In this document: positions 9 to 59,979 of the stretch, one piece after another
Layout: every line of letters begins with the position of its first letter
Numbering within the stretch: the first letter of the stretch is position 1
Assembly (NCBI GenBank): GCA_964187785.1
Contig: OZ076409.1
Coordinates: 25,484,001-25,548,000, forward strand
Source of the DNA: Amphiscolops sp. MND2022
Taxonomy: Eukaryota
Length of the DNA stretch: 64,000 bases
Direction of reading: 5' to 3'
Notes under the pieces: generated by a model
The model's input: the letters and a program-made list of their open reading frames with translations, nothing else
What the model was told of the DNA's origin: nothing
Database searches by the model: none
Translations under genes and position numbers: made by a program

Positions 9-3000
9 CTGATTTCAAAATAATACAGTACTTTCATTTGAATTTTACTTCGTGTTTTCATGAACAGTTTCCTAAGACATTTTTCATAAGTAGTCTCAAT
101 TACACGTCAGATAAGAAACTTACGTTGATGGTATTGACGACGATGAAAACGAAAATGTTGGAGGTCTCGGTTCAGAGGTTGGCAAACTGAAATAATCCAT
201 CATTGTGGCACTTTAACACAAAAAGTGTTTCTTCTGAGAAAAATATACGATGAAGAGATATTCAATAAGTTTTGAAACGGGCTTAATTGGGCCACGTACA
301 TCTATGAAACTTCGTTACTCTGAATATACAAGCACAGTTGCGTCATCAAATAACAGACGAAAAATGCTTTCTTGAAAAATGAATTGCCAAAAACGTTATA
401 ATTCCGTGGAAACCAATTTTTACGGAGGACTATTGAAAAATTAGCATTTTGTGATCATTTTGCTGCGTAAATTTTTGAATATTGAATATTGCGTTTTCAG
501 AAAACGTGTTTTAAGTCCGAAGTTAGAGATCTGAATCAAATGTACAACATTTGTTTGATGCCTTTTTTGTTACGAACAGCGGTTTTCGAGATGGATGATA
601 ACATCCGAGAATGCTGGATGTCGCCATCAGACGGAATGATAGATTTTGTAATGTTGTTTGATTTCGAAAATACCGGTAATTCGGCTCGGAATTTGGAAAA
701 ATTTGGCTCCTGGTAATTTTGTTTCTATTGGTCAAGTATTTTTCTTGAAATTTAATTGAAGGGAGTTTAAATTTTTGTCAGCAAAATTGATTGTCTTTAG
801 CCATTTGGCACCCTAATGTGTCAAAAATACTTGAAAGAATCTATTCCCTGGTTGAAACTGCTTGAACTTTTCATTTTGTGAAAATTATGAAAGAAAAGTC
901 CATTCATTAAAACGTCACTGATGATTTACCTTTATAAAGTTGCTTTTAAAGAGCATCCTAAATTTGGCGGCAATTCTGCGCCGCAAAATTTTGCAGGTTT
1001 CATTAACACGCCATTCTAATTTTGAAAGCAGCTGAGACCTTCGTCAATTTTACCGCGGTTTCAATGCAAATAAACTTCAGTCACATTATAAGCTTCAAAG
1101 TAGCGTCATATTCAACGTGCTATTTGACTAACGGTGATTACAGAAGGTAGTTGCTTGAGAAACTTACCCGTGAAAACAAAGTGATCGCAACGGTGAAGAA
1201 GTGGAAATGTTTTCAGTTTTAATTCAAATAATAGAGGCTGCATTGTAATCCCACAAAATGTTTCCATGCAGGCTCCCGGAATTTTCCATGTTTTGTAAAC
1301 AAAAAATTTGCCTGCATGTTTCCATGCAGCATGTAAAAAGTTCAAGCAATCTCGACTAGGGTTGAGCACAAATCTGTGACCTCATTAAATAGCTGGTAAT
1401 CACAGCTTGTCAACTGACCATTGTTCGAATGACTACGTGTTGGGAAGTATGAAATCATGACGTGTAAAGTTTCCAAAAAAAATTGACAACCAAGAAAAGA
1501 ATAATTGCGAAATGGGTAAAATTACATAGATGTCAATTGGGGTCGCATTCCATCATCTTTCTCAGTAAAAAGTATATCGAAACGGCCTGACAGAAAACAT
1601 CCATTGTCGATTGCTATTGTCGACCTCTTCAAAGTTAATGGAAAATCTTTTTGGCTACTTCGATATATGACATGATACATATCACTACTGTTAGCGCTAC
1701 TGTTAATCGAATATGCATCATGATATATAGGGAAGCTATAAATAATGCACTCAAAATAATTTATTGGGTACCAGAAATCAACGTACACCATTCTTAATTC
1801 AAACTTTTAGAATTTGAGGCTTCAATTTTGTTTCGGATGTTTCCAAAATTTTTGACCTTACGGGTTGCCTTAGTTTATCTATTCTACTCTTCTATAGTCA
1901 AGAAAGCGCTTCAAAACAATACGCAGGCCATATTTTCCCTAATTAAAATTCAGCAAATTTTCTTACCTTTCTGTAGCAGAGGTGGTTGTGTGTTTCGTTG
2001 AACTGGTCGATTGTCCTAAAAAAGACTATTCCACTATTTTTTTGACACCGCGAAAGTTCAATGTTTGAAATTAGTATTTCGAAAAACATTAATGGTTACA
2101 CGGTCTTTAGCGAATCTTGGAAGCCCAAGCTGGTTCTATTTCATGGTTCAAAAATGATATCTCTGACATGCCTTTTCCATATCCTGACTACTTTGGTAGT
2201 ACGGATTCGATTATAGCGGTGCAGATTAGATGTTTTTTAGTTCGTAAAGTTACCTTTTGAATATGTTATAATAGAAGACAAATGATCGGTAATTTTATCT
2301 GAGATCTTTTGTGAACTAATTTGTGAACTTAGAAGAAACTTAATCTAGAATTTATGGTTTCCCATACTATGATTAGTCTATGAAACATCATGATGATCAC
2401 AGTATGGTCATACTATTAAATGTGTCCTCCATGGTAAGGTTTTGGCATAATCATGATCTTTGATTCTATGGGATCGTACGGCTTCATGAATTTCCTAATA
2501 TGGAGCAAATGTCCCAAACAGTTGGCATGAAATCATTCCTGCAAACTACTCATTTCATGTAGATTGATTGAATGTTTTGTGTTTACTTGAGCTTTCGCAA
2601 AACTGGTATAGGTAGGTGTCATTTCCAGTGAAGGGAGGCTCGTCTGACCCATCCCCACAATCGTCGTGGCCGTCACAGATTTTTCCAACAGGGATACAAG
2701 CTCCGAACTTGCTTATCCTCACATTGCTCTCCCAGTCACCACAGACAACACTTCCATCCTCACAGAAGGTGCAATTGGCCTCATCCGATGTGTCTCCGGA
2801 GCCACAGTCAACCTCACCGTCGCACACCTAAGTGAAAATGCCTATGCTTCAGGGGATGTTTGCCCTTTCAATTCCGGAAATTCAGTCCCGATACCTAGAA
2901 ATGGTAGTCAAAGACATTTGAGTCCAGCAAAAGTTGCCAACATTCAATAAACAAAATCTCTTCTTTCAAGTATTTTGTGAATTTCATAAAGGGCTTTCTT

Positions 3001-6000
3001 AAATTATATCCAAAGCAGATAAAAGACCTAGTTATCATATTAGGGGAAAATTAGCAGACTATGGGAAATTAATTAATCAAGCGGAATCATTCCAAGTATT
3101 TTGGCACTTTAAAGTGTGCTACTAAATGGTCTGGGACTGAAATATCTAAGCAACGGCAACTTGAAGTTCACACCGAGGTATATTTAAAAACCTTGTCAAT
3201 GCATTACAATTGAGTTAACCTTGATAAAAACTTTTAGCAAATATCAATCCCTGTTTGAAAAAAAAACAAAAATCATTTAGTATTGAACCTTAGTATTACC
3301 TTTTTCAAAATAGTGTACAGTAATTGTTCAGCAAAAAATTTCTTTCAATTATTAATAAAATTATAATTTAAAATTATACAAAAAATTTTTATCACTTTGT
3401 ACAAATTATGCAAATTTTGACCAATATTGAAATATTTAGTTGAAATAAAACTTTGATGAGTAAAATGATGAGTAAAATGATGAGTTAGAACTTTATTTTT
3501 TGTATAAGTTCACTTGGCAAACTATTTTCGCTAACTATAACATCAATTGTTCCTTTCAAGTGTAACGATCCCCAGTCATATCATGGTTGAAAAATTCGTT
3601 CAAGCACGGGGAACTACAATTTTCTGTCAAATTCCGCAAATTGTCTCCGTGTCAGCTCAAAGACCCGTTCGGAGAATTGGAAAGGACTAAAATCACTACA
3701 GACACGGAGCAGACCCGAAAAAGCAGATTGAAAGAACGCTAAGGTCTTGCGATAAAAGGACTCAATTAGCAAATTGCTAATCCTGCCAAGACGAATTCTG
3801 AATAAAAACTTGTGATTTCTGCAGCATGACTCTACTAAGTGTAATAATAGCTTGAAATGAGTCCCTTTGCTTAATTAGGCCTACTGTGCATGTGTCCCCC
3901 AGCTAATTGCCGTAAAAGTCATTAATGCTGTGACTTATTGTGTTTTCCTGATGTATTAGCTCGTGAGCTACTAAATCGCGATGTCCTGTGATCTGAAGAG
4001 TTTACCTTTGGCACCACCATCTTCGTTTTTAAAAGCTGTCTAAATGGCGATTTTGAAAAGAAAAGGCGTAATTTACGTTACTAACAGCAATCACAGACTG
4101 GCCGGCAGGACCTGCTCTTGACGTAACATATTTATCTCAGGAGGCAAAAAGGACATGTGGCTACAGGCGCCTGTCCCGAGCACATACCCATGTCACGTAT
4201 TCTTCCATCTTCACGGACGGAGAAGCGACGGCAATTGCTTGCCGTTACAAGGTGTTTTTCGATTTTGATACGTTATGTTAAATTCACATTCGGAACTTTT
4301 TAGCTGGTCAATGAAAATCTAATAACTTGATGATTTTCAATATTACACTCTAAAGTAGTCTCGTGAATTTTGTCCAAAAGACAATGAAAACTAATGTGAC
4401 AACATTTTCATACCTTAAAATATTTCAGCCAACAAAGAAGGAATCGCTTTATAGATTTTCCTGTAGGACAAATTTTTGCTTCCGTGGGACACGTAGATGA
4501 GTTTGATCTCGTGAAATGCAGTGTCTGTGCATACAAGACAAGAACCCTCACTTTGCCCCCGAAAACTAACAAAAGTTTTGCGGGTTATCGTCCTCTACAT
4601 CTTTATTGCTGCTTATTAAACCTGCTCGAAGTCAAAAGGTTAAAAGTTGGCATAAACAAATGATCAAAATATTTACATCGACAACCCTCTCTGTTTCGTT
4701 GCTTTTGTATCAGCCTTTAGGAAACAAGCCGGGAACGGCATAAGGCATCTAAGGCTCAAAAATAGCAAAAGGACTTCATAGTGCCAAGTATTCTCTTTTA
4801 AAGTAGCCGAACAACCCAAAAGTTGGACCGAATTGGCACGCTAAAATGGGGGCGGGCTTTTGGGATTTTTCAAAATTTCTGTCGCTAAACATCAAAACAA
4901 ATTGAAAGTTGGTGAAGAAACTTTTTTTGAAAAAAAATCCCACAATGCCGAAAAAACTGGAAGGGCGGTCCTCTAGTCTCGCCCGGTATTGTATGCTACG
5001 CAAAAAAAAAGGAAAAACCTTTTGGGTTCAGTTCGCTGAATTTGACACCATTAAAATTCGTAGAAATTTTATGAACTATTTTGGTCAGATTGTGTGTATT
5101 GAAAAAAAGCCACTATAGTCGCGTTTCACTTCATGAAGCGCCGACTAAAACGATAGTATTAGTCTGGCGATTCGAGTTATCCAAAGCGTTGATTGTAAAC
5201 GCTATTAGACCTCGCGTCGTTTTTAATCTCTCAGGCGATCAAGTCCTAAAAACTTGAAGTTAATGTCTCGTAACAATGTTTCCGAATATCAATAAATTGT
5301 GCTCATACTTAGAGTTTTGAAGTTCTACCGTAGAATCTTTTTTCCTGATAACGCTTTACCTGTTGGTGTGAAAAACCCACTTTTTTGATTCTTTGTGGGA
5401 AATAATAGATATAGTTTGTGTGATAGCCGAGTGAGGTTCGTGATATGTGCTTAGTTCGTCGACCGATTCAAAGATGCGGACATTGCTCAGAAGTTATTAT
5501 TGGTTTCGGAATTGAAGATAAAGATCCGGACATTGCTTAGAAAAAAGTATTCCTTTCGGATCCCAACTTAAGGAATCAAGACATTCAAAAAGATGGAAAA
5601 TTTGATAGCGTACTTTCCCACTCTTTAATTAATTTGCCATTCTCTTCACTTTTAAAAGACTGTTATTGAAAGTAGGCAAAACTACGTTATACTAACGAAA
5701 GAGTGCGGCAGACAGATGTGAGTGTTGACTTGGCACTGGAACTGCCAGTGGAAGCACTGGGTGGGACAGTCTTTCTCGTCAGAACAGTAGCCATGGTCGC
5801 CGTGACCGTAGATGACAATGCAGTCGCACTCGCCGTCACAGATGTCCTTCTCTTCCAGACACTGGACACTGTTGTTGCGCCAACTGGCACACTGCAGATC
5901 CGGGTTGTCGCACGCAGCTGTAGAAAACAAAACTTTGTCTGCCTGTTGCTTTCATTTGTTTATTGATCGTTCATTTATGTTTATCACAAGTGATGTACGT

Positions 6001-9000
6001 AGTGATAAAATGTGTATATCCCATTGGGCCACTTTTTTCGTGATGTGCAGTCAATTGAAAGTATGCAATAACAGCTGGGTCTTAAAATGGTTTCGAAAGC
6101 TATTGGTTCTCTACATCTACATATAAATGCGCATGCTCTAGAGAAACTCGTTCTGCAATTAGAGTAATCGGAAATAATTTTACGCCCCAATGAAAATGAT
6201 ACTTAACACAATTTGCATGCCATTGAAGCGAAGACTTCTAAAGTTGCTTTAAAAGTTATTAACATTTTATTCGAACTCAAATCATCACTCTTCCTTCAAA
6301 ATAGAATAAGCTAAGTTGTTTTCTTTTCTTTCCAAGTGAAAAATGATTCATCATCATCTAGCACCAGATTTCGGAGTAGAAACCTACAATATTCGTTGCG
6401 TATTCATTACGTATTTTTCAAAGTCAAATCTACTTGGATCAAGTCTGGTTTTAAAACAATGTACAATAAGACACACGCACTGTTCGCTTGTTTCTATATG
6501 CACGTTCTTAATTCAGATGACTTGCAAACTTCGTATGTTTTTTCGTGGTCTCATGAAAAATGAAAATGAAGGCAGTACTCACTGCAGTTTTGTTCATCTT
6601 CGCCGAAGGGACAGTCCTGGTGGTTGTCACACGTGTAGATGATGGACAGACAGAAGGCGGTTGAGTTGTCAGCTGACCCACATGCCATTTCAAGGTCAAC
6701 GTCACATCCACATGCGGGGTTGGTGTAGTCATTCACACACACAATTTGCCCATATGTAGAACATTCGCTGAAAGTTTAATGCGCAAAGGTTACATAAGGG
6801 GAAAAACAGGAATACCTAATGCTTCAAAAAACTTTGCAGATCTCGATAGTTGAAAACTATTGGAAAATGGTTCTTGAACTGTTGCTGTGGTAATCTCTCA
6901 TCGGCAATTACCGAGATATATGATAACTTACTCAATTTTTTTCTAAATTAAAAGAAAGGTGTTCCGGTAAGGAGCTGTTAACCCTGTAAGGCTGACCACT
7001 TAGCGAACCAAGGTGGATTTCATTCGAAAATATCTGAATCAACTGAAATTTTCGGGGGTCAAAAACAAACAAGACGGGAACGTCTAAAGTCGGCGTCTAA
7101 AAGGTTCAAAAAGCGCAAAGTTTTTAAAATCGTAAAAGGGGAGACCCTTTGGGCTTTTTGAAAATCCAGTTTGGTGCAAAATATATAGAATTATGAAGGA
7201 GAGACCCTTTGGAGACATTGAAAAATTTTCATTTTCTAGAAATTTTTCGAAATAAAACCAAAAATGAGAATTTTGAACAGTCTTATAGTGCCGAAATACT
7301 TAAAAATGGAATTTTGGGACTTTAGTTTGCTGCAAAATATCAAAAAAACTTGAAGGTGGGACCCTTTGAAGGCAAAAAAATCAAAAAAGTTGCCCAGTGC
7401 CGAAAACAATTGAAAGAGGGGACTCTTCAGTCTTGTCCGCTTCCGCAAATGTTCGAAAAAGTTTCTGGCTGAAGCAAGGACTCCAACCCGTGACCGCTGG
7501 GTTCACCGTAAATCGATTAAAGTCTGTATTAAAAAGTGGTACATACACGATGAAGTCTGTGGTCTGACAAAAAAGAGAGAAAAAAATCTAGCCATTCCCA
7601 TGTTGAGCTTTCCCTGAGAATCTGTAAAAATCTTAAGCCAATTTTCCTTGAGGATCTGTAAAGATCGTGCCACTGCTACGTTAGGACAACTTCAGATCTG
7701 CAAGGATCTTTACAGATGTTCAAAGATTTTCTGTACAGGTTTCTCAGGAAAAATTTTTCCGGACCTTCTAGTGAAACTATGCATTTCATTTTTAAGCTTC
7801 TTCGGTAGATATTTTTGCTGGCCAAGGCTCAGTCAGTTGAAATTTTCCATCACTCAAAATTCTTGAGCAGGAAATCTTGTCCCCATAACTGTAATTTTGG
7901 TGTCTGGGGAATGTTAGGTGTTGGTTATACACTGTAATTTATCCATTTCACTTGAACTTTGCAGAAGTGGTTTTTCAACTTTGAGAGGCTCGTTTGCCAT
8001 ATTGAATTCGTTTTGTTTTGACGGATGAAATGGAAATTTGACATGTGACAACCTCCTGGGTTGATAGAGGTGTTGATAAAGTGCTGTGGTTGTAATATTT
8101 TGGGAACATGGTTTGCTGAAGTAGTTTTAGTAATTGCTGGAAACTCGGAATACGGTATAGTGATTTATTGGTCATTTTCGTATGGTTAATTTTTAGCAAA
8201 TCCTGGAATATCTGCAAGGATCTCTACAGATCTGTACAGATTCGCACAGAAACTTTTGTAAAACTTCAAATAAGAGGCGTATTTTTTTCGTAGAGCACTT
8301 TTTAACCAACTAAATTCTTTTTCGAAAACTGAATTTATGACTATTCAATTTTCGAACAATCTTGGAATATCTGTCAGGATCTGTGCAGATCTGTACAGAT
8401 TCGCAGGGAGTGCTCAGCATGGGCTGTCATAGTCGGGCTCTTTTCACTACTAGAAGAGCGCCGTCTAAAAAGACGCCACTGAGTACCGGGATATTTCCCG
8501 TCCTGAATTATTTGATACCATACTATTTTAAGGCTGAAGGGTAGCCAATATGCTTAAGCAAATTTCAAGCTACGGAACATGCACATGAAAGTTCTCCATT
8601 GAAAAAACACTTTGGAGCTAAATTTTAGTCGTAGAGTTATGAGGATCTTCAATCCGACAGAAACATTCAAAAATCTTGGTCACTTTTTAAAAAGGTTCAA
8701 ATTTCTAGACAAATATATAGGCTCCAATAGCACCATCACGCAGCTATCACAGTAAGATCTCAACAAAATCGTATTAATTAAGTATCTTTTACTACGAACT
8801 GTGCTATACGTATCGTACTAAAGAACATGCGTCTTTTAAGATTGCTCTTTCAGTAAATAATAAAGCGTGGCAATTACGTTGGGTTTATATTATCGTTGCA
8901 CCTAATTTTTACCTGTGCCCCCTATTTTTCAAGAGCGTTATAAGTGAATTCGCGCATAACATTATTTGATTATAAATCATTTTAGTAACTTGAAGTTGCC

Positions 9001-12000
9001 CAAAATAGATGACTTGATCTAAATATTCAATTCACAATGCAGCACATAAGAGTACGATTCTGTTCCTTGCAATGATTTAGCATTGTAGACATGCACATGA
9101 AAAGTTCTTTATTAAAACAAGCCTTTGGAGCTAAATTTTAGTCGTAGAGCTATGAGGATCTTCAATCCGACAAAAACATTCAAAAATCTTGGTCACTTTT
9201 TTAAAAGGTTCAAATTTCTAGACAAATATATAGGCTCTTAATTTGACCCCAATAGCACTATCACGCGGCTATCACAGTTAGAGTAAGACTCTGTTCCTTG
9301 CAATGATTTAGCATAGTAGACAAACTGTTCAAAGCATTATAGTTTCGACCCGTTGGCTTGTCGTATTGGGGTGAAAACCACTTTTTAGAGTTGTTTTGGT
9401 AGCAAATCATACAGCGATTTTCAAAGGCAGTGTTGTAAATGAAGATTGAAATAGCAGTGAATCATTTTTGAAGTTGCTGGCAATCGTTGTTGCAATATGA
9501 ACTCTATTCTACGACTTTGTATTACGATGTATCATGCCATCATACGTTTCGTAGTACGATCATAAAAAGCAAAATCGACGGAAAATGTTTTGAGTTTTTT
9601 TAAAGTCACAGAAGGCCAAAAAACCGTAAATGCGACCATTTACGCTCTTGAAACGTAATGCCCTGACTAACAGTAAAATCGAAGAGAGACTCTTTGCTGG
9701 AATATTAAAAGTTTCGCAAAAAGTCGCATGGTGCCAAAAAAAACAAAAAAGCCAATTTGTCCAAAAATGGTGTCCAATTTGGATACCATTTGGTCTTAAA
9801 TAGTTTCCAGGGTACGGTAAATACGATGAAAAACTGAAAGGGTTCATTCTTTAGCCTCCTTGGGTAGTCTTTAGAACTTAAGCGTAAAGTCTGTAAAAAG
9901 TGGACCATTCAGTGTAAGGTCTGTGACCTGACGAAAAACCTTCCCTTACAGAACCGTTAAAAGTAGAAGAGGGGTGTAGTTGTTATTCGTTCATGTGTTT
10001 ATGAGTGGAAAATCAATGAGATGAGATGGAATAATTGGTATCATTTTATGTTTTAGATGGTGCTCTTACCATCTGGTGCAGTCTGAGGAGTAGTAGACGT
10101 ATCCTGGGGGCACAAAGGTCATGTGATCTGAGCCACCAATCAATTGAGGCAGAGCACAAGGACAGTCTCCGGGTAACACGCACTTTCCACTTGATGCTGA
10201 AACACATAAAGTATCACGTGACTGGAGACTGGATGGGCGCGTCTTTTGTTCAAAAGATTGTCTACATTTCAAATCCAAAATAAGAGAAATTTCTTGATTT
10301 TTCATTGACCATTGGTCAGAATTAAGTTTTTCAATAGCGAATTGAAAGACAAAGAATATGACAGATGAAGTTAGTATTAGAAATTTTAGAATTTTTGAAT
10401 GTCGAGAAATTCTATCTGATATATAGAGCTTGCGGGTTTTCTGCCGAAACGATCAAATTTTTGTTGCGATTCAACTTTTTATATTTTCTTTAAAAGAGGT
10501 CACCAAATCTGATTCTCACGGAGACACGTAGTAAAAAGTTGAGGAGTGAAAACGCAACGAATGATAGATTTTCTGCAACTTAATGAAAATAGGTCGTATA
10601 TGCATATGCTATCTATGTCCTGATTTTGGACATTGTTTTAGTGATTTTTAGATCTTATTCCAGTGATTTAAGACCTTAATGCTGTGACTTTAGATAATTA
10701 TTTCTTTTTTGATGCTGCTTGTTTGCGATTAGGCAGTTTTGGCAGGACCTTTTTTGCATATTGGCCTTGTTGATAAAATTGACTACATGCCTGTCTTACT
10801 ATGTTCCAAGATTTTGGCAAGGGTTACATGGAGGTCAACCTGGTTGGCTATGACGCATTGATATGATGTATGATACATGGATATGAAGTGTGTTTTTATA
10901 ATAAAACATGCGACATGCATGCATCAATTATGCTGTAAGTCTTACGCTCGTAGACATATCCAGCCATGCAGAAACAGCCCTCGTAGCAGTGGTCATCATC
11001 TCGGTTGCACTGTTCTATCTCAGGGGAGCCGTAGTTGGCACAGGTCAGGGGACAGGCCGGCCCACACACCCTGTAGGAGGGGCAGGTTGTCGTCAGAGGC
11101 AGTGACACCTCCATGGGGTCATATCCGATCATGTTGATTGGCTCTTCATTGCAAGGGTCACATCCACCAGCTGAAAAAGTAACATAGCGTGACGTCACAA
11201 ACGTATGAACAAATCGCTAAGAGTATAACTCCAAGCGCCCAAGCTTTGGTATCTTGTCTGAAGGAAAGATACACAATGTTCTGAAGCCTTCTTTTTGATT
11301 CAAACGATCCTACTCGTTATTCAGTGAAAAGTTTTCTTCAAAAAAAGAAGTTGCTACCTAATACAGAGCGAATTCAAGTACTTTTGCTGAACATTATTGC
11401 TCTATAGGCTCGCGCTCTTTCTGGTACTTGATTGAAGGGAAAATGTTAAACTAAAGAATGATAAAAATCTTTGAGGCGTTTGATCATGAACTTGAAAAAA
11501 AATTTCTTCACGAATAACCATTTTCCACATTTTTCAAATCATGTCGCAAGTACAATCTTTTAATTCAAATCGTATCATGTATTCTTGAAATGTAATGCAT
11601 GCGTTTTGAAATAATCATACATATTTCCAAAGAATAATGCAATGTTTTACAAGAGACAGGAACTAACGGCAGAAGTATCGGTCCCTCCAGGCGACACAGA
11701 TGCTCTTTTGCATGCAGCAGTCTCTGGCATATCTGGCCACGGCTGTGCATAGACACTCACAGTCACCTCCGCTGGCACAGCCCATTGCCTCCACCTTGTG
11801 GCACGCATGTTCATGTTTTCAAAATTCAGTTTTCATGTTACCCATGACTCTTCAAACGGAAGGAAACTTTTGAAAAATGATAGTCTTTTCTCTACTTTTT
11901 TCTTGTATTGCCATTGAATTCATAGAGTCAATCAATGTTTTTTGATTTTAAACACAGTGCGATCTAAAGGGCCCCGTTCAGTAGTGAAAATTCTCAAACG

Positions 12001-15000
12001 TTTGCAAATTCAACTGTATTGAAACTGTTTTCAGATCTAACGATGGAGCAGCGCTTTATCCAATTTTTTGATGAGATTTTCGATAAAATTAGATCTTTTC
12101 AGGAATAAGCCGAGTGTTGAAGACTAACCAATTTAGGTTTTTGTTGCATTTTTTCTAATTGAACCGTTAAAACACCGGTTTCTTTTAGAAGGTATAAGAA
12201 GATGAGAAATGTGTTAAATCGGATTTTTGACGTTATTCCCAAGTTTCAATACTTTGAGTAAGAGGAAAACAGCGGACTTCATAAATGAAATGAGTATACT
12301 AAAATGAAAAGTGGAGTGCAATATGTATTCCTGGGTGTCCTACCAGGAGCCATGGTAGATGCCGAAGTTCAGCTTATAAGTTGTGGTCGAAGAAGAATTG
12401 TAAGAGGAGTAAATTAGTTTGCTGCAATGATTACGTTAAAGTGCAAATAAACCAATTACAACTGATTTCACTGACTTTATTTTGGATTGTTGACAAAAAA
12501 TGAAGCGAAATGATAAACCTTTCGAGGCATTTTGCATTGATAGGAAAATGAGAAACATGATATATTCAATGGAACCTTAAATTGTTTTTCAAGGAAAACG
12601 TTCTTCCCTCTTTTAAGTGAACAGAGGCAGTAAACCTTTATGACCTTAGCATTCAGACATAGGCGTCTCAGAAGTTGAAGTGAAATGTTAGAACTGCCAA
12701 AGTTTGAAGGTCAATACCAAAAAGAACAAGTGAGAGCATTCAGGTCATTTTTCGTAACTGACAGCATAGCAATCGCTTGTCAAGTCTTTGATGTTTGAAG
12801 TTTGTCTGCAACATCTTTCATTTGTTATCTCGAAGTTACGTTATCGAAACGACTTAACAACTACAGCAGAACAATGTTACAACAAGACGCCCGCTAAGCA
12901 CCGGTGTATTCAGCCCCACAGTCGTATTGTGTATTGTGTCGAAAGCGAGGCTAGAAAGCCGGGAACAGCCCAAGTTGGCGCGCGTTCCAGGTTCAAAAAG
13001 GCAAAAGGTTTGAAAATTTTCGGGGGTCAAAAATACTTAGAGACAGTTGAGACTCGAAAATAGCTTTTTCTGAACTGGAATCATCAGACAAACCCGACTT
13101 ATGATTTTTATGTTGAATGTTGGTAGAGTTTTGAGGATGCGTGCCTTGCAGTCGACCATGTACACTGTGGGGTCAATATGGGTATGACACGCCCCAAAAA
13201 TCTTCTCATCTAGGATTCGCTCGCACTGTTTTATAGCCCACGCCTCTCTATACGTGTACCGCTGCATCACCTGCGAAAGAAGACGGTGAAGGTTTGAACT
13301 TTACGTTGGATATACAAGAACTCAAAAATGACATAAAACTAATTTATGGTTAATATATATCATTAGTTTAGAAAATTGTAGAAATAAAAAAGTTCGAGTC
13401 ACTTACGATTTGGGACTGTTCGAAATACATTTTCATGATAAATCCAAAAAGCCCGTTTAAGTTTTAATTCAAGTGGTGATTTCAGTTCCGTCATATTCTG
13501 GCAAAAATTGTTGTATATAAGGTTCTGATGAGTTTAGTTTATTCAGTAAGTAGTAGTCTTAGTTCAAATTTTTTCAACGTCAACTTTCTACCGAGTGATA
13601 GTACTATCTTTTTTTGAGAGTACCAATTCTTCAATAAATTCCTAGATTTTAGTTTTCAGAGGAGTACTCACTGCTCACTGATAAGATTTAGAGTAAACGC
13701 AATCAAATTCTTTCCAAAATGTTTAAAAATTAACCATATAGCACCGGGGTTCTCAGCATTGTCAACTAGTTTAAACTAGTTTAAATAATAATCAAGTAAT
13801 AATACTTTTCTTGATATTCAGAAAGAACTAAGGAAGCGTTTACTTTTTGGGCGTAGTCATAACAAGAGGTCTGTGGACAGTTTTTGTAGGCCCAGGAGTT
13901 TCCGAATACACAGGGGGCACAGACTATGACATTGCTGGGCGACTTGAAGTCGTTGCCGATCTTGTCGTCATAGGTGCCACACATGCCTAGAGTCCTCTTT
14001 CTGTGGATCTCGCCCACAGTGATGTATAGCGACATCACTGAAATGACAAAGTGGATTTTTTCTCAAACTGATCTTACGAAACTCCGAAAATTCGGCTGAA
14101 TCTTTTAAAAAACATTTATTTTTCATCAAAGTTGTCGCTGCTGAAAGAATTTAAAAATATATAGAAGTACTCACTTCCATCCCAAGCGATTATGACGTCA
14201 GTCTTCTCGGTGATAATGGCCACGACTTTGAAGTAGCCAACACTCCTTATTTTCACACCAGCTGTCACTGTGTAAATGGAATCCAGTAGAACTTGAGTCA
14301 CCGCACTTCCGTCCACCCTGAAATAAAACAGGAACTGCCTTCCAAACCTAACAGCTGACATTCGATAAAACCACGGATGCCATCTTGTAAAATATTAGAG
14401 CCGCAAAATGACTGTTGCCGCGAAATATATGTTATTTGAAATTTTTGAATAACAGGCCTTGCGGTTTGCGTGCTTGGGAATGCACATATATGTGAACCAG
14501 AAAAAACGGAACACACAAAAATTCGCGTCTTCAAACTCGTATTATTTGTAAACATAGTACGGAAATTGCCTCACTTTTTGTCAATCATTTAGAATGAAGC
14601 CTCTGATACGTAATCACATTTTCAACTAAAGATTGTTCGTAGTATCAGAAAAAGTCTAGACTATTTTACAGGTCATTTCGTTTTCATTTTAGATGTGTGA
14701 AAATTCCTCTGCTTCAAAAGAAGTTGCCAATTTGAATGATTGACAGCAGTGTTCAAAGTTGTGAAACGTTTGTTGACAAATATTTGAAACTTTCAGAGCT
14801 CTGAAAATTTAGTTTCTTCAAATTACCGAAAGTACCGTAAACCTGGCACAGGGCATCAAGGAATACGGGCTTAGGCCTAAACCGATAAAACAGTTCAGGA
14901 CACAGACACACTTCAAGAAACTATTGAAAACGCTGCATTGATAGGAAGTTCTTCAAAACATGTATCAACCCGGATCCAATTCAACATGCAATTCCATCCA

Positions 15001-18000
15001 TGGACCCATATAGTTTTCTACAATAATTTCGTGCAGTTTTCCTGCACAGAATAGTACGGAACCATATGGTTCTATGCGTAGAAATTTCTGAAAAACATGG
15101 TTCCATGTATTAAAAAATTTCGTGAAATTGTGTTGATCATATGGTTCTTAGTCTGGAACTGCATGAAAATCGCATGAATTTGGCTTCGTGCATCAATGAC
15201 AATAAGCCTTGACGTTCATGAAACTCAAAGAATGTTTAATGCAAATTTGTAAGTAATCAAAGATATTCAAACCTGACTCCTTGACCTCTAATCAACTCAA
15301 TCTCAATGAAGCTGTCAGTGGGGTTTTCCCGATAGAGCACAAAGACGTTTTTGGCACACACGGAGTTCGAGGTGCCACACAAGACGTCTTGTACTCTGAC
15401 CTCGAGGAGTCCGTCAGTTGTTTGTAACATGATGTACCCACACCTTCCGTCAAAGTGGTACTGCAGGTCATCAAACGTCTTGTAGATGTGTGAGCCCACC
15501 GAGTAACAGGTTGCGGGACAGTCCTATGGTAATCAGAAAATGTTTATTCTGCTATATATGAGATATCATGTGTTTTTTTGACGTCATTAGTACTGGAATG
15601 GTTACATATTCCATTAAATTCTAAGAACAGGACTCGTAAATATTTCGAATAAAAATGAAATGAACTCGCAAAGGAATGAATTGAGCTCGGAAAGGAATGT
15701 AATGAGCTCCGAAAACACCTTTTGTTGGGACGATATAGATGAAAATCTTCATTTTAGCTTTGATTGCAGTAAAAGTTTCGCGGAAGCACAAAGTGGAAGT
15801 ACAAAGCTCATTACTTTTTTTAACACTTACCTTCAGTAAAGTCTGAAGTTGTTTATAGCAAGATGTTTGAAATACATGTTTGATATACCACAGTATTTTC
15901 GAACCTCCACTTCCAAAATTCGGATAGTATTGAAAAAATTATCGACGGATAATTATTTGGAAAACCTAATATCAGACAAAAAAAAGGAATCTTGAACAGT
16001 CTGATATTGTCGAAAAACGTGAAAGGGGGACCATTCTAGATTTTTTACATCCATTTTGTTGCAAATTATCAAAAAATATTGAAAGAACACCCTCTTGAGA
16101 CATTGAAAAAGGTTCGAAAAAAAACAAAAATTGATAATTTTGAACAAGGTCACAGTACCGAAAAATTTAAAAGGGGACCCCTTAGAATTTTTTAACATCC
16201 AGTCTGGTGCAAAAATTCAAAAAATTGAAGGGGCCTTTTGGTGCAATTAAAAGATTTTCGAAAAAAGTTTCATAGTGCCCTAAAAAACTCCAGTTAGAAA
16301 CACCAAGATAGCCAAAGTGGGAATCCTTAGTATGTTTTTGAGGTTCTGGACGTCGGTTTTGTTTTGGACGAAGTTCTGACGTTTCCAGTACGTTTTGGCC
16401 ACCCGAAGGTCAAGTTGGACAAATGAACAAAAAAGTGGACCTTAGGCGTATAAAAAAACTACTCACTGTAAGACTCGGGCACTTTTCTTCAAAAGCTCCG
16501 ACGAAAAACTTAGTTGTTGTGCTGACTCCAATAGAATTTGAAAGAAACAAAATGAAAAGAAACACCCGGTACACTGGCAAAACGCCTAAAAGCGGATGTA
16601 AGAAGGAATATCGCAAACACGTCTCCGCTCTCCGCAACAATTGCAAATAATTCGTCAGCATTCATCGATCGAGCCAGTTTACAGTTGCCAACATATTTCA
16701 GAAAAGTTGCTGATGGCGCATCTTTGTGGAAAAGGTGACTGCCTCTCAGAAAAGTGGAAATGAATAGGTTTCGTAATTTTACGAGGACCGTTCAGTTGAA
16801 CTTTTTGAAAATTTCTTAGCGAACTAATTTGAAGAACATTACAAAAGAGGCTGCCAATATTGATTCTATATTTGACACACAGATTAAGAAATTGACCCGC
16901 CAAACTGTCGTAAATATTAACTGTTGGACAGCACAATACCGTACGACATACTTGGGCTGCAGAGCTCATTTGATCGACTCTCAAACTCTCTTTGAAAAGA
17001 AAGTCTGCCTTCTCCTTGCTGAATTGAGACCACCAACAGTTTGATTACCATTTTCAGAAAAACAGCATAGTTCGTTTCATATCGTTTCCGACAACGCTGC
17101 GAATATGAAACTAGCTTACGATGCTACAATCGTTCAGGAGAGGATAGTTTTTCAGGAAGAATTGAAACTTTCCAGGTCAAAAATAACACCATGAAGTTGG
17201 ATATGGAACTGGTCTGGTTGTTCGAGATAAGCCCAAAAAAGTGAATTCGTACTCAGTTCTCAAATGCGGTTTCAAAAAGTTTCGCAATATTGCCGGGTTA
17301 TTGCACTGCCACTTGAATAATTTCAAAAACAAATTAGTCTTTTGTATCCACAAACCAAACTAGAAACTCGAGATGGAAACCAGATGGAACTCAGAACTCA
17401 GAATGATTTTGAAGAAAATTCTTACGATAGTCGATGAAATCAAATCTGCATTAGGATCGTGTGACAAGATGGTGTTGTCATTGTTGCCTCTTGAAATCTT
17501 TCGAAACAATTGTTTGCCGCAGATGTTGAATTTTTCGAACAAGGGATCAACATTTTTCGAATGGAAGCCAACCAATAATCAACTTTATTATACCAACAAA
17601 ACATTAACTCCAAAATGCAGTTTCGCGGCAGTCAAAAATGCTGAAAAGAGTTCTTTGTGCAGTATCTGGAAACGGACGTTCAAAGAACAAATATCTTGAA
17701 ACTCCGGAGAGAATATGAACCTAAACAAACCATAAAAAATCTAGTCCTAAAAATCTTGTTATATCCGGACAGTTCTGGAGCAGTGGAAAGGATGTTCTAC
17801 GTTTGCGATTTGAGTTGTGCTGACTGAAAAAACACACTTTCTCCAATGAATTCGGAAAAGATTGATAAGATTGCGTTTTCTGAATTAACCTAAATCATTG
17901 TCAGAAACTTTACAGTCGATTCTCAGTACTGCATGCGATAATTTTTTCTACACGATACCGATACACTAAAGGAAAGTATACGAAAAACATGATACACGAT

Positions 18001-21000
18001 TTTCAGCGAACGAGTCAATTCGCCGGTCCGCTAATTTGTAATATAGATATTTTCAATTAGCAAAAAGCGGTTTCGAGCCATGAGGGCCCCATTTATCGGC
18101 ACTTTTAGAATTATGACAGCTTTAGCAGTAATTTTAATGTTCTCGTTTGCATTTTCTTTGAATCTTGTGAAGCCACTACTCTGTGCAAAGCAGAGGGTGT
18201 GAAGTTTTTCCAATGGATTTAGTAATACTACAGTATTGATTCCAAAAGATGTACCTTATTGATATTATTGAAAGCAACAAAAGGCAAATCTCAAAACCGA
18301 ACATCTCAAAAACGGCAGAAACGAGTGATTTTTTGGAAAATGGTAAACATAAAAGTTTCTTAGATTTTTATCTAGTTTACAAGTTTGTCTGTATGACAAT
18401 TATGCGATAGAAAATGTAGGCCAATTTTAGCCAAATTTATGTCAAAATTCAAAAAAATTTTTCTAAATTAGTGGAAAATTTCATGTTCAATGGACCCCTT
18501 GATTTTACTGAAGCCCTTGATATGTTTTGATTCATAAACTTTTCTGTAATCGTTGAAAAAATACGCTGTAAATATAGGCTTCTCCGAAAATACATGTATC
18601 AAGATACAATTTTGAAATTTAACAACTTAAAACAAGCTCATACTGATACAATTTACAATATTTCAGAGAAAAAATACATTGTCAGATTCGATGTTCGGGA
18701 GAATTTTCAATTCATAACTATTTTGATATCAAAAAAGTGTAAATGGGTCAAAAGTTCAAAAAACATATGAAACGATGTTATGGAAAGTGCTCTCGACCAA
18801 TGAAATGAGCGCGTGAGAACTTAATCAACCAATGGGATTTATTTATTTGCTCTCTTTCTGAATGCTATGTTGCTTTTATTATTTTCCGTCCATATTTCAT
18901 ATGGAAAAGGAAAATATTTAAATCAAACGGTTTTTCTACAAAATTTGCCAAGAATTAAATTATATCCTAGAAAAACGGTTTCACCCATAGAATTCAACTG
19001 ATGTGAAATTAGTATCATGCGGTATGAATTTGTCGAGGTTTTTGGACTTTTTTAATTGATCCAAAGACACCAGAATGACCCAAAATTGACGCCAAAAATA
19101 GTAAAAGCAGCAAACGTTTCCAATTTCATGCAATTTTTGTCAAATTATTGATAAATTTCCTGGCTTTGAATGTTGAGAACAATCCAAAGAGAAAACAATT
19201 GTTATCAAAGAGGCTTTTTCAAAAAAATTAATGCAATTTTTAATGAAAAAATGCCTCAAATTTAGACGCAAATTGACAAAAATACCCGAGAATTCAGAAT
19301 TTTGAAGATTTTATGCAATTTTTGTCAGTTTTTCGAAAAACTTAGTGGCTTAGAATGTCAAAGATGTTAAACAAGGAAAAGATTCGCTGTCTGGGAGGCT
19401 TCCTTGAAGAGATAAAAGCAATTTGTGTCAAAAAAATGCATCAAATTTGGACCGAAATTGACAAAATACTTGAAAATTCAGATTTTTGAAAATTTTATGC
19501 AGTTTTTGTGTACTTTTCGAAAAACTTGGCGACTTAGAATGTTGAAGACGTTCAAAAAGGAACAAATAAGTTGTCGTGGAGGCTTCTTTCAGGAGATAAA
19601 AGCAATTGGTGTTGGAAAAAAGCATCAAATTCAGACCGAAATTGACAAAAATACCAAAAAAAATCAAATTTTGAAAACTTTATGCAGTCTTTGTGTAATT
19701 TTGGAAAACCTTGGTGACTTAGAATTTCAAAGACGTTCAACAAGGAACAAAGTGGTTGCCAGGAAGGCTTTTTAAAGGAATTTAACGAAGTTTTGTATTA
19801 GAAAAACGCACAATTTGCGACCAAAAATGACAATAACTTGAAAACGTACCGATTTTTCACGTTTTCATGCAACGTTTGTCAAATTTCTAAAGATTTCATG
19901 GATCCGAACGTTGGATACTTTCAACCATGAATGATTTCGTTCTCCAATAGGGTTATTTGCGGAGATAAATGCAGTTTTATAAAAAAAGAATTGCCACATG
20001 GACCCCAAAATAGTCAAAAAATACTACTTTCTGTTGCAACCTTTTCATGGATTAGAACTCTGAAACGATTCAACAATAACTGAAGGCGTTGTCCGGTTGG
20101 CTTTTTCATAGGATAAGTGCCAGTTTCTGGTAACAAACGTGCTTTAATTTGAATCAAAAAATGTCGAAAACTCCACAAATTTCCAGCTTATGTAGGTTCT
20201 TCATGTTATTTGGGTACAATTTTCTAGAATTTGTTGAGTTAGATGGTTCAAAACAATCAAAGGTGATAAAATCAGGTATGTAGTTTCCCTTCTTAATGAG
20301 AAAATTACAGTGCTTTACATCAGAAATACTTCAAATTTGTAATTTTTCCTGCAGTTTGTTTTCAAATTTTGAAAGTTTTTGTGACTAGGAAAGTTCAAAA
20401 CACTCGAAAACGAAAAAGTTAGCTATGCAGTACGCTATTTTGAAGAGAGCTGCAGTATTTTGCTTTCAAAGTGACCTTGATGAGTCGGAAATAAAAAGTC
20501 TAAATTCAACGCTTCTTAAGCAAAGTTCTGTATTTTTTGAGACGTTTCCATCGTTGGAAGACAGAAAAGCTCCAACAGCGAACGAATGCGTTACTCAGTA
20601 GGTTTTTTGAAGGTGAATTGCAGTTTCACGTTAGAAAAGAGCCTCAAAAACAAGTTTTGGCAGTTGTTCGACAATTTAGTGAATTTCTTTTGAAAGTTAC
20701 CAAAACTTCTTAATAGTCCAGTAGTCTAACTTTTTGGAGTAGGCATGCAGAATTTTTGAAGAAGAAATCTACAATTGTGTATGCAAAAAGTTCGTCAGAA
20801 CGACTTGAAATTTAGTGAAAATCAATTTTTTGTTTTTGAAATGTTGATATACTTTTTTGTAAACGTTTCGAGCAATTTTGGTATTCAAGAACGACTGGAC
20901 CCGTTATCCAATAGCCGTTTTTGAAAAGTCATCTACAGTTTCTTATAAAAGTTCCTCAAACGACCGCAAAGTTGTCGAAAAAGCAAAATTGTAGAAATTT

Positions 21001-24000
21001 TGACGTTTTTGCCGACTTCGCGCAAATTTAAAGAAAAATCAATTGGTTAGGTTTTGGAATACACACAATCTGACGAAAAACCAAATAGGTGTGTGGTGTC
21101 TTCTTGAAGTGTTCCCTTCTGAAATGGCATGACATTATTCAAAAATTGTCAAACTTTTTTTCATCAAACCTCTATGCGTTTTCATAGTGCAATAGCTACT
21201 CTTGAGTCTCAAAAATATGTCATTGCTGGAGCAGTTGGGACGGAAAATATCCTGCTGGTCAGCGGGCGTCTTGTTAACATGACTATTTGAGTGTTACGAA
21301 TGTCCTGCAATTTTTACGCGCCCTCGTAGCTTGACTACATTAAATAGTCGACCGTGACTTCTCTACCTGAGTGTGTATTCATATCTGGTTTCAAATCAAC
21401 AGATTATCGGTTAATTCATTCATAAAATGTGTTCATAACTCATTTTTCAACTGTTTTTTTTGTAGTGATGAAAAGTCGTTTTGCGCACCTGTTGATGACA
21501 CTGCCATGTCTTTCCCATGCACACACACTCACTGCACTCCCGTCTGATGACGTCACCTTTGGTGTACTCAAGTCCATCTGCGATGCAGGAGCACTGGTCT
21601 GGGTACACACACATGTTGCTCAGGGGGTACTTCAACACCATCCCCGTGGGACATACACACGCACCAGGCACTATTCCTGCAGAAAAGTAACAAGTAAATC
21701 AGAAAGAACTGGGCTCTGCAATATTTGTATATAAGGATGTAAAAAGGAGAGATTTATTGAATGAAATTGTTTTCATTCAGCAATAATTTAAGGAAACGTG
21801 AAACGTTTAAATTGGCCCGGAATCAATGTTTTGGCATTGGCGCCACTATAGTCACTCAGTTGAATACGTTATTAGTTTTTGCTCTCAATGATCTTCAGGA
21901 AGTGCAACGGAGTTATTATGCCAAACTTTGAATTCAGACAAAGAAATGAATTCGGTCTGAATTCAGTACAATTTGAAATGAGAAACTGAATGTCGAAATC
22001 AATTATCATTTTTATCTTCCGATGTATGAATTTATTACTTTGGAAGGGCCCAAATTTTCACCAAAATTCTGTTGATATGGAATATTCAACAGATTTCAAC
22101 AATTTCAAGATTTGGGCATTTTTTCGTTTAATGTGACTGAGGAAAATTTGAGAAAAAATATCATTTATATTTTTCAATTTTTGTCAGTCACATTAAACGA
22201 AAAAATGGCCAAATCTTGAAATGATTAGTTGTTTCTGTCAGATCTCAGACTCACAAATGATGCTCCCCTTGTAAAAATACTATTCGGATGGTAAGTTGAT
22301 ACGCACCATGTGGACAGACATGATCGTCAGGTGTGGTGCATGTATCGATGCAAGGAGACACGTTCTCCTTGAAGACCAAGTTGCCTGGACACTCGGAGGT
22401 ACAGGGGGGCTCCTCAATCTGACACTCGAACAGACCATTGGTGCAGGTGCTGGAACAACATACAGTATGTCTGTCTGCTCCACTCATTATCTGGGCTTGA
22501 AACAGCACTGGTCTGTTGTTTTTTGGAACACATTTCACTCACTTTTACAGCTAAATCTTGATTTGAGATTCTCAGTCTGTTGGAAAACCCTTCAATTTCA
22601 ACTAAACAAAACTTAACAAAACAATTTTAGAAGAGGTTTGTAAACTTTATGCATATTTTTTATCATTTTCAGCTGAACGTTCCAAATTTGTAAGAGTTAT
22701 TGTTAAATAATGCCTTTTCTTACAAGTTCTTGGCAAATTATTTGTGACAATTTTGCAAAACATGTAAACTTTTCCAGAAAGGGTTGTAAGTATAAACATG
22801 CAAGATTGAGCTGATGTTTTTCCCAGTGTAAAATATCTTGAAACTCGTGCCAAGAAAGTCTTTTCCTGCAAGTTCCCGTTACCTCTTCAAACCCTTGATA
22901 AGATCTTGAATTATTCTTGGACAGTTAAAAAACTTTTCTCCTTGAACCGTTAAGACTCTTATCAAGAAGTTCAAGAGGTGGAAAATTCGAATTCATCGTT
23001 CGGGCATGAAATTTGCACGTGTCACATTTTAGTACATTAGAACTGTAAATAAATCTTCTCTTACAGGGTTACCTCAATGACCCGGGTAGTATTAAGGACG
23101 CTTTTTGGCACCGCTTTTCCTGAAGCCACTGAATAGGTAGGATGATTTCATGAAGTTTTGGTTAGATTGTCATGATTTCTAGATGAAAATGGCCCAAATT
23201 TGGAGACTTTGGTGAAATAAGATCTAAAAACACTATTTTACTGGAATAAGGCCTGAAATCACTGTATTTTGGTAGAATGAGGTCTGAAAACACTGTATTT
23301 TACTGGAATAACGTCTAAAACCCCCGTATTTTGGTAGAATAGCATCTAAAATCACTATTTTGGTAGAATAGCATCTAAAATCACTTTTTTGAAAATAGCG
23401 TCTAAAATCACTTGTCTTGGGAATAATCTTCTTGGGAAAATTACTACTTCTGTGGAATAACGTCCAAAACCACTATACTTGGTAGAATAAGAACTAACAA
23501 GAGGGGAACGTCTAAAGTCCGAAAGTCTGCGCTTTATCTCAGGCTCAAAAAGATCGATCATACGCCTCCTCCTCAATAGAACGCGAATTGGATATAACTC
23601 TCTTCGGATAAACGTCAAAAGTTCGGATACAGCGCTTTACTCCAGAAACTAAGTCAAAATTTTGAAAGTATTGAAAAAAGTCATTTGTGGGTATGTTTTG
23701 AGAAAACCTAATTCCCTACTAAAAAGAGAATAATAATACAGTCTCATAGTGCCAAAACATGTTAAAAGGAGACCTTTTGGGCTTTATGAAACTCCTGTTT
23801 GTTGTAAAATATTGAAAAGTTTGAAGTGGACCTTTTAGAGACAAAAAATGCTAATAAAAGTTGCACAGTGCCGAAAAAATTCAAGGGGGGACCCTACAAT
23901 CTTGTCCCGTTTTGCATCTTAAGTTAAAAATGGAATAAATGAAAGGGGACCCTTAGCACTTACTTACATGCGTTTCCGCTTGTTGCTCCAATAGTTTAGT

Positions 24001-58944: not shown

Positions 58945-59979
58945 GGGTGTCAGGTCAAAATACCGCAAGTTGAAATACCAGAGGTCGGAAGACCATAGGT
59001 CATAAAACCACAGAGTCAAATTACCAGATGGTCAAATTACCAGACGGTCAAATTACCAGACGGTCAAATTACCTGACGGTCAAAATACCAGTGGATTAGG
59101 AACCCAAGTAATGTGCCACGTGAAGTATGGTTATTATTCCTTTCTAATACCGTAAATAAAAGACTCATTTAGAGCTAGATTACACATTTCTAATTATTTA
59201 ATTAGTGCAACTACAGTACTGTGATTAAGAAATCGTCCCCTATGACGTTCTCAGCCAATCAAAATTGTTTATTTGGTCTCACTTTCAATTCTGATTGGCG
59301 CATCAAGTTAAACTCACGTAAATTTGGGGAAATTTTACCTTTTGAGCCTGATAATTCGGAAACGGTTGATCTATCTCGAAATCAAAATACACCAATTTAT
59401 TCAGTAGATTTGAAGGAGTTATTTGAGCATAAAACTTGTTAAAAAAACTGTGGAGAAAACGGTCAAAAAGTATTAAAACGGAAAACGGTTCCGAATTTGC
59501 TCAAAATCTGCCATTTGTAACTTTCTTAATTTTTGTCCCAGAAAAATTAAAAAAAAACACTAAAATGAACTAGATAAAATTCTAAGAAACTTTTATGTCT
59601 GATGTTTTTAAAATTCTCAACCGATTTCGAGAAAATCGAGCCTAAAATCGCCCGGGGGACGTTTTCTGAATGACAGTACTGTATTGTCTCGATTGGGATT
59701 CGATAAACACAAACCAGTAAATGGCCCCTTTCTTCACATAACATTAACTAATCATTGCAACACTATCGATTCTGAAAGCACTGAAATCATTTTAGTGCTA
59801 AAATCAATTCGACTCTGGATAACATCACGTCATCGTTCAATTCTAACTGGTATTTTGACCGTCTGGTAATTTGATCGTCTGGTAATTTGACCGTCTGGTA
59901 ATTTGACTCTGTGGTTTTATGACCTCTGGTCTTCCGACCTCTGGTGTTTTGTCCTCTGGTACTCAGACCTGTAACACAC
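58945..59979. mobile_element. Foldback-like element with long TIRs built of 15-bp repeats
   Basis: GGTCAAATTACCAGA arrays at 58951-59090 inverted at 59848-59977. Confidence 0.8.
59214..59681. mobile_element. Tc1/mariner-type MITE nested in the foldback element
   Basis: CAGTACTGT..AGAAA.CGTCCCC TIRs, TA target duplication. Confidence 0.8.

Follow-up and report, generated by a model that had tools for sequence, protein, structure and literature searches.

We analysed a window of 64,000 nucleotides (nt) from Amphiscolops sp. MND2022 (contig OZ076409.1; G000:C1:25484001-25548000 in a genome of 1.07 Gb). On its minus strand lies a mucin/SCO-spondin-like gene with VWD, C8, TIL and LDL-receptor-A modules (Table 1). 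The gene model is confined to the window, and its 24 exons (57165 to 2587) gave 1500 codons without a stop when they were joined. Its introns are of the GT-AG type in 22 of 23 cases. The remaining intron (13144-11795), called the focal intron here, divides the C8 domain and is both the sole GC-AG intron and the sole one with an AAG acceptor. The exon before it ends in TGCAAG, and the intron starts with GCACGCAT and ends with ATGCGTGC-CACAAG, as a preliminary description of the window had reported. The origin of this intron is the subject of the present analysis.

The two exons flanking the focal intron were aligned without gaps to four homologues (P0001, encoded on contig L025, and P0012, P0016 and P0120). 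Homology fixes the junction at the position first described. Readings that avoid the GC donor were rejected, because a conserved cysteine would be lost or the domain shortened. The lack of a polypyrimidine tract had also been pointed out. The tract is indeed weak, with a pyrimidine fraction of 0.47 at positions −20 to −4, but this joint lowest value is equalled by two ordinary GT-AG introns of the gene and is not distinctive. U12-type introns have an RTATCCTT donor and a TCCTTAAC branch site; this identity was rejected because neither motif is present at the intron ends. A search against Rfam gave two chance-level matches only.

The downstream exon was used as a query and led to P0001 (86% identity). 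The gene on L025 shares the four flanking intron positions, and it reads straight through the focal position at D-C-R-I-E-A-M-G. P0012, P0016 and P0120, which are frames from European Nucleotide Archive contigs, also cross the site. They are probably genomic in origin, since they run into an apparent intron past the end of the next exon. The position is thus empty in L025 and in three other homologous frames and does not appear to be ancestral; because of this, the focal intron is most simply explained as a gain in this lineage.

A 330-nt orphan duplicate of window positions 13435-13105 was found at G000:C1:25677885-25678217 (L175, minus strand). It contains the upstream exon at 91% identity, interrupted by an in-frame stop and shortened by 3 nt. 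Of the first 40 bases of the intron 38 match, and the upstream intron is about 75-80% identical. This near-intact intron start may be a hint that it is under constraint. Because the duplicate contains the first 40 intron bases, the GC start would predate the duplication; the duplicate gave no 3' intron end.

The 8-mer at the intron start has a perfect reverse complement 6 nt before the acceptor, which confirms what had been noticed by eye. The inverted repeat is 9 nt long when the exon G at 13145 and the C at 11800 are counted, and in the other 22 introns of the gene no such repeat exceeds 5 nt. As a null, the 23 donors of the gene were paired with every second AG in the surrounding 264 kb (333,822 pairs). 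An inverted repeat of at least 9 nt near both ends was found in 227 pairs, and in 6 pairs it was joined by a direct repeat of at least 3 nt at 75%; these criteria were chosen after the intron had been seen, so that the counts are a guide and no formal test. A flanking direct repeat can be read in three ways for the same splice: a 9-nt inverted repeat with a 4-nt duplication (3/4 matching), 8 nt with 6 nt (4/6), or 7 nt with 8 nt (6/8).

A paralogue on C12 has a second odd intron in the same domain (L197), readable only as GG-AG, and because of this finding a survey of dynein genes was undertaken. Ten 40-kb dynein regions were examined by spliced alignment to a DNAH2 profile. The first pass gave 331 intron calls, 111 of them confident, and the second gave 269, of which 137 were confident; the second profile included first-pass products and is partly circular. 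Unconfident calls were dropped, and some of the confident ones are probably wrong. The 137 confident introns comprised 119 GT-AG, 10 GC-AG, 4 GG-AG, 3 GA-AG and 1 CT-AG introns. The CT-AG call (L271, dynein region C7a, oriented 11385-12135; region L270-L273) stands where another paralogue has GT-AG, and may stem from a misassembly or from mutation of the donor.

Five dynein introns, all in phase 0, share the start of the focal intron in the form AG^G(C/T)A(C/T)GCAT, where the caret marks the exon-intron boundary. Three have exactly GCACGCAT and two have a GT donor; together with the focal intron they are called class A. The motif AGG[CT]A[CT]GCAT occurred five times in sense in the ten regions, always at a called donor, and once in antisense, and the exact GCACGCAT occurred three times in sense and never in antisense. 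Class A starts were present in 4 of the 137 confident introns against 0.09 expected from donor base frequencies, with a motif that was widened after the data were seen. The class thus amounts to five of about 300 dynein calls and to 1/23 in the host gene. Two of the three exact introns have no in-frame GT-AG alternative within 36 nt, and the junction of the third (L261 6140-5682, 459 nt) matches DNAH9 contiguously at residues 1463/1464. This third intron repeats the geometry of the focal one: its terminal inverted repeat (17 nt, 88%) stops 6 nt short of the intron end, and its direct repeat matches at 7/8. An 8/10 arm also ends 6 nt before the end of L297 5735-5140. Inverted repeats near the splice sites are thus perfect at 8-9 nt in the focal intron, long in L261, and weaker or missing in the four other members. 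An early criterion for rejecting the idea was that no other introns or repeats share these termini; other introns do share them. Class A introns are 234-1350 nt long. None of four class A positions was common to paralogues, compared with 39 of 115 positions of GT introns. The position of the L297 intron was crossed by 12 of 12 homologues among the matches listed, several of which look genomic, the others being probably mRNA-derived.

Since the orthologous gene has no intron at this place and five other introns begin with the start motif of the focal one, we consider that the latter is likely the relic of a small non-autonomous DNA transposon, which was inserted in an exon and then removed by ordinary splicing. 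A transposon-generated intron had been suggested from the window alone, and this suggestion is well supported, as the junction, the empty site and the shared termini all fit it. The insertion event, its splicing and the superfamily are what we infer from this anatomy. In the proposed sequence of events, an element with (C/T)ACGCAT at both ends would have inserted where the target ends in AGG, with a duplication of 8 nt. The donor, GC or GT, would be formed by the last G of the left copy and the first base of the element, and the acceptor by the AG of the right copy. Splicing would then remove the element with one copy and leave the protein unchanged. The 5' motif, being the donor and pairing with U1 at −2, −1, +1, +3, +5, +7 and +8, would be retained by selection, while the interior would decay and gain a repeat fragment and a long terminal repeat (LTR) fragment, and the 3' arm would decay.

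The length of the duplication bears on how the splice sites arose. We somewhat favour 8 nt, as in hAT elements, because the L261 repeat matches at 7/8, because five of the six class A downstream exons begin with G as an 8-nt duplication predicts, because GT and GC interchange at the donor, and because the class B introns described below are of hAT type. An element with T or C as its first base would give this interchange, and the start CA/TA under the 8-nt reading is presumably hAT-like. TGCAAG and CACAAG had been proposed as a decayed 6-nt target-site duplication. They do match at 4/6, but the 3/4 and 6/8 readings fit as well, and we regard 6 nt as possible and clearly less probable. A 4-nt duplication with a 9-nt repeat was our first model; it was rejected since neither of two exact inward pairs among 79 scanned ATGCGTGCCNNNAG matches had a duplication and since the dynein introns favour 6 or 8 nt, and we now hold this length to be doubtful. 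It had further been supposed that the donor comes from the inverted repeat and the AG from the duplication. The latter part fits our reading, with the AG in the right copy, but the donor may be only partly derived from the inverted repeat, and an 8-nt duplication that supplies its first G would fit at least as well.

The interior of the focal intron contains two putative secondary insertions (Table 1). Copies of the 726-nt LTR occur in pairs about 8.5 kb apart; 40 of 429 candidate copies were scored, so that closer ones may exist. Intron nt 820-1350 had no other match in the genome, and the intron ends had none except one local duplicate.

The second class of odd introns, class B, is more surprising than the focal intron. 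It consists of eight introns of the form CAG^GGATG...CATCCCT, mostly GG-AG, with Ac-type hAT ends. Six are confident dynein introns starting with CAG^G(G/A/C)ATG. CATCCCT, with at most one mismatch, was found near the acceptor in 5/6 of these compared with 3/115 GT introns. Two of the four GG dynein introns have no in-frame GT-AG alternative within 36 nt, and the alternatives in the other two delete or add residues. The distance from CATCCCT to the intron end is 12 nt, as predicted, in 4/8 class B introns and 14-18 nt in the others. At L246 a perfect 10-nt repeat is combined with a 5/8 duplication followed by CAG, a geometry that leaves protein length unchanged. In a free element, L170, the Ac-type inverted repeat is perfect over 13 nt and the target duplication matches at 7/8; its family is a candidate source of the GG-donor introns. 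The hAT dimerisation domain is abundant in the genome, with 150 scored matches of 2215 candidates. With an Ac-type inverted repeat and an 8-bp duplication seen in both L170 and L246, elements of hAT type can be said to have given rise demonstrably to the introns of class B. Seven codons downstream of one GG-donor intron, at L297 2371-2238, a dynein gene seems to be without an intron that is present in several genomic-looking homologues; this seems to be an intron loss adjoining an intron gain.

Table 1. Features of the focal gene and intron (window coordinates), class B introns and a free element (locus coordinates).
Feature	Position	Strand	Description
Host gene as modelled in window	2587..57165	minus	VWD, C8, TIL, LDL-receptor-A modules; mucin/SCO-spondin-like; 24 exons
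Upstream coding exon	13145..13270	minus	first part of C8 domain; ends AG; phase 0
Downstream coding exon	11668..11794	minus	rest of C8 domain; begins with G
GC-AG intron	11795..13144	minus	1350 nt; absent from orthologue
5' arm of terminal inverted repeat	13137..13145	minus	contains GC donor; motif shared with five dynein introns
3' arm of terminal inverted repeat	11800..11808	minus	perfect reverse complement of 5' arm
Left copy of candidate 8-nt target duplication	13144..13151	minus	6-nt version 13150-13145
Right copy of candidate 8-nt target duplication	11794..11801	minus	6/8; would provide AG acceptor
Dispersed-repeat fragment	12881..13104	minus	intron nt 41-264; 76-86% to other copies; probable secondary insertion
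LTR fragment	12326..12885	minus	intron nt 260-819; 726-nt LTR; 70-78% to other copies; probable secondary insertion
Single-copy intron sequence	11809..12325	minus	no other genome match found; probable decayed interior of original element
Class B intron	L246 9484-8777	minus	other mucin-like paralogue; perfect 10-nt repeat, 5/8 duplication then CAG
Class B intron	L197 1146-1500	plus	CAG^ donor class; C12 paralogue, GG-AG
Class B intron	L258 8291-7664	minus	CAG^G(G/A/C)ATG donor class
Class B intron	L262 7111-8563	plus	CAG^G(G/A/C)ATG donor class
Class B intron	L297 4952-2372	minus	CAG^G(G/A/C)ATG donor class
Class B intron	L297 212 to L296 9901	minus	CAG^G(G/A/C)ATG donor class
Class B intron	L296 6176-4237	minus	CAG^G(G/A/C)ATG donor class
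Class B intron	L263 1783-2129	plus	CAG^G(G/A/C)ATG donor class
Free element	L170 4936-6017		1082 nt; perfect 13-nt Ac-type inverted repeat, 7/8 target duplication

Several observations weigh against a transposon origin of the focal intron. Its splicing is deduced from reading frame and homology, and an intron loss in the relatives, instead of a gain, is possible. Within class A, L297 5735-5140 matches the duplication at 3/8 only (against 6/8 in the focal intron and 7/8 in L261; 6-nt and 4-nt readings also fit), two dynein introns have the arm 21-24 nt from the end and one has no arm, and the interiors share only secondary repeats when compared by BLAST among the class introns. The search for family copies, which consisted of pattern listings and by-eye checks of a few pairs, was also negative. 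No other inward-facing pair within 5 kb was seen among the first 100 of 2175 9-mer matches or the first 100 of 834 10-mer matches. Of the 96 other ATGCGTGCCNNNAG matches, the 79 scanned included two exact inward pairs, neither of which has a duplication. AAGGTACGCAT is rarer than its control (133 versus 282). CAGGCACGCAT occurs 426 times, compared with 69 for its control, a six-fold excess. However, 20 of the first 30 of these 426 CAG^GCACGCAT loci are copies of four repeat families, and no arm placed 6 nt ahead of an AG was present within 1.5 kb at any of the 30; the excess is therefore no evidence for introns. Such genome-wide counts are confounded by repeats and by the CpG content of the reversed controls, and we gave them no weight as supporting evidence. 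When 619 kb were scanned de novo for inverted repeats flanked by duplications, no family with the focal ends emerged. The exact form AG^GCACGCAT is present at no more than 706 genome sites. Elements of about 700 nt with the same 8-mer in their inverted ends, in opposite orientation, were found at C1:20727198-20727897, C1:69581653-69582354 and C2:9461846-9462525 (G000); they are apparently a separate family of miniature inverted-repeat transposable elements (MITEs).

The absence of a free element with focal ends from these scans would also suit a different explanation, in which GCACGCAT is merely a strong species-specific donor. The intron would then stem from a different process, for instance repair of a double-strand break at an AG^GT proto-splice site, and the arm would be due to chance. 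The AT at +7/+8 and the exon AG fit canonical U1, whose good pairing could offset the GC; four of the six members have a poor or displaced 3' arm, and a 5-nt direct repeat at the junction is also suited to repair-type gain. However, +4 and +6 are shared non-consensus bases. We found 23 copies of U1 small nuclear RNA in several subfamilies, at least 21 of them above the Rfam cut-off (L328-L347). The 5' ends of most of the 20 copies that were aligned are canonical, and none of these 20 matches class A or class B. Two copies have a 5' end that would pair with GTTAGT, one of the most frequent donors in this genome, and a different altered 5' end is common to three. The joint null count (6/333,822) and the independent intron L261, with both its inverted repeat and its duplication, also argue against a mere donor, and we consider it quite unlikely.

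Whatever its origin, the inverted repeat could be under selection for pairing of the RNA ends, by which weak splice sites would be bridged as they are in the non-conventional introns of euglenids. A 9-bp helix is present in the predicted minimum-energy and centroid folds, which were computed without shuffles at this length and with ends cut near the arms, a choice that favours the helix; on these folds a functional RNA stem is possible. Both focal arms are perfect although the later insertions have diverged by 20-30% from their families, and the persistence of CATCCCT in class B points the same way. The 3' arm is imperfect in all five other class A members, however, and the helix would cover the donor from −1 to +8 and the U2AF region. 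Base pairing had been raised earlier as an alternative. It is not supported, since in five of six members the 3' arm has decayed or shifted and since the donor itself would be hidden by the helix; we give it a small chance. The 3' end could also be a captured piece of a reverse transcriptase from a long interspersed nuclear element (LINE), joined by microhomology at CAAGGT, with the inverted repeat being incidental. The last 27-29 nt do match GVPQG-motif codons of a decayed LINE family (23-24/27 nt; profile 7 bits), but that family was found by searching with that very motif, the match stops short upstream, and the same termini in dynein introns would be left unexplained. LINE capture is therefore highly improbable, and a transposon relic is the explanation that we retain.

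Other mobile elements are present in the window. A Gypsy-type LTR retrotransposon with terminal repeats 99% identical lies at 49963-55917 (plus strand) in the first modelled intron, antisense to the gene. An element at 27878-36396, within a 14-kb intron, has 99% identical direct repeats 8219 nt apart and a 460-codon frame at 33540-34919 (plus strand); at least five copies elsewhere share the CAG^GCACGCAT that it contains at 32836. At 41797-42604 and 58951-59971 lie two fold-back elements, in which long inverted ends enclose tandem repeats.

Introners are transposons that are spliced out on insertion, and three studies define their families by similarity among at least four introns and describe cases in which their splice sites derive from the duplication or the neighbouring exon (PMC9860276, PMC12130899, PMC11282704). 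The focal intron resembles Introners with terminal inverted repeats and target-site duplications, such as IE1 of Micromonas pusilla (Gozashti et al. 2022, PMC9860276; PMC11282704), in its GC/GT donor at the element end, an AG that would come from the duplication, inverted ends, new position and unchanged protein length. However, Introner families share sequence similarity and have median lengths of 30-654 nt (PMC9860276), whereas here only the 8-nt starts are common and the interiors cannot be aligned. The label Introner-like, applied to this intron before, is thus apt for the mechanism and not for the family: membership of a recognisable family is not supported, as the interiors share no similarity and the scans above gave no free copy of the focal class, although L170 is one for class B. 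Because it works like an Introner and fails the similarity test, we file it as a presumed relic transposon-derived intron rather than an Introner by the operational definition.

MITE-derived introns of another animal, Fritillaria borealis, are also new introns with splice sites in transposon inverted repeats (PMC11282704; bioRxiv 10.1101/2025.08.15.670264). Fewer than 10% of the Fritillaria introns are GT-AG and their ends are AG-AC/AG-AT, whereas GT-AG prevails in our dynein introns and the acceptor stays AG. The GA/GG donors of Eurytemora affinis (PMC5714493) are recent gains with an obligate exon AG, A at +3 and canonical U1, and CAG^GGATG of class B has the same signature. They make up about 10-12% of introns there, with no origin proposed; here GG/GA calls amount to about 5% (7/137), most with visible hAT-type ends. 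The maize hAT element Ac/Ds has an 11-bp terminal inverted repeat C/TAGGGATGAAA and an 8-bp target duplication (PMC3260210). The first 8-11 bases of class B agree with this repeat, and an 8-nt duplication is compatible with the class, whereas the ends of the focal class, (C/T)ACGCAT, are different. Splicing of Ds is known from mutant alleles; the introns described here belong to conserved genes, in which they are fixed.

Among 835 animal and plant genomes, the 2022 survey reported Introners in only two animal groups (PMC9860276). We found no report of such introns for acoels in a search that most subscription papers lay outside, and 12 of the 14 supplementary files of the 2025 survey contain no acoel or Xenoturbella genus name. 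Transposon insertion is a known route to new introns.

We tentatively propose, at somewhat less than even confidence, that two or more waves of hAT-type intron gain left hundreds to thousands of fixed GC-, GG- and GA-donor introns in this genome. In the GG class the element would give its first three bases, CAG, to the exon and be spliced at CAG^GG with canonical U1, its inverted ends being kept by selection. This Ac-type end would also account for the AG^G(G/A)A donors that are obligate in Eurytemora and other animals, and Introner screens that rely on similarity would miss waves of such age. The GG/GA class would offer a concrete origin for non-canonical animal donors and a natural substrate for studying how canonical U1 accepts GG. 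Gene models restricted to GT/GC donors would break conserved genes of this genome. This genome probably contains transposon-made introns that are too old for similarity screens and yet readable from their ends, so that the share of animal introns made in this way may be underestimated. The main interest lies in the indication that conserved genes of this animal carry introns with GC, GG and GA donors left by two old transposon families.

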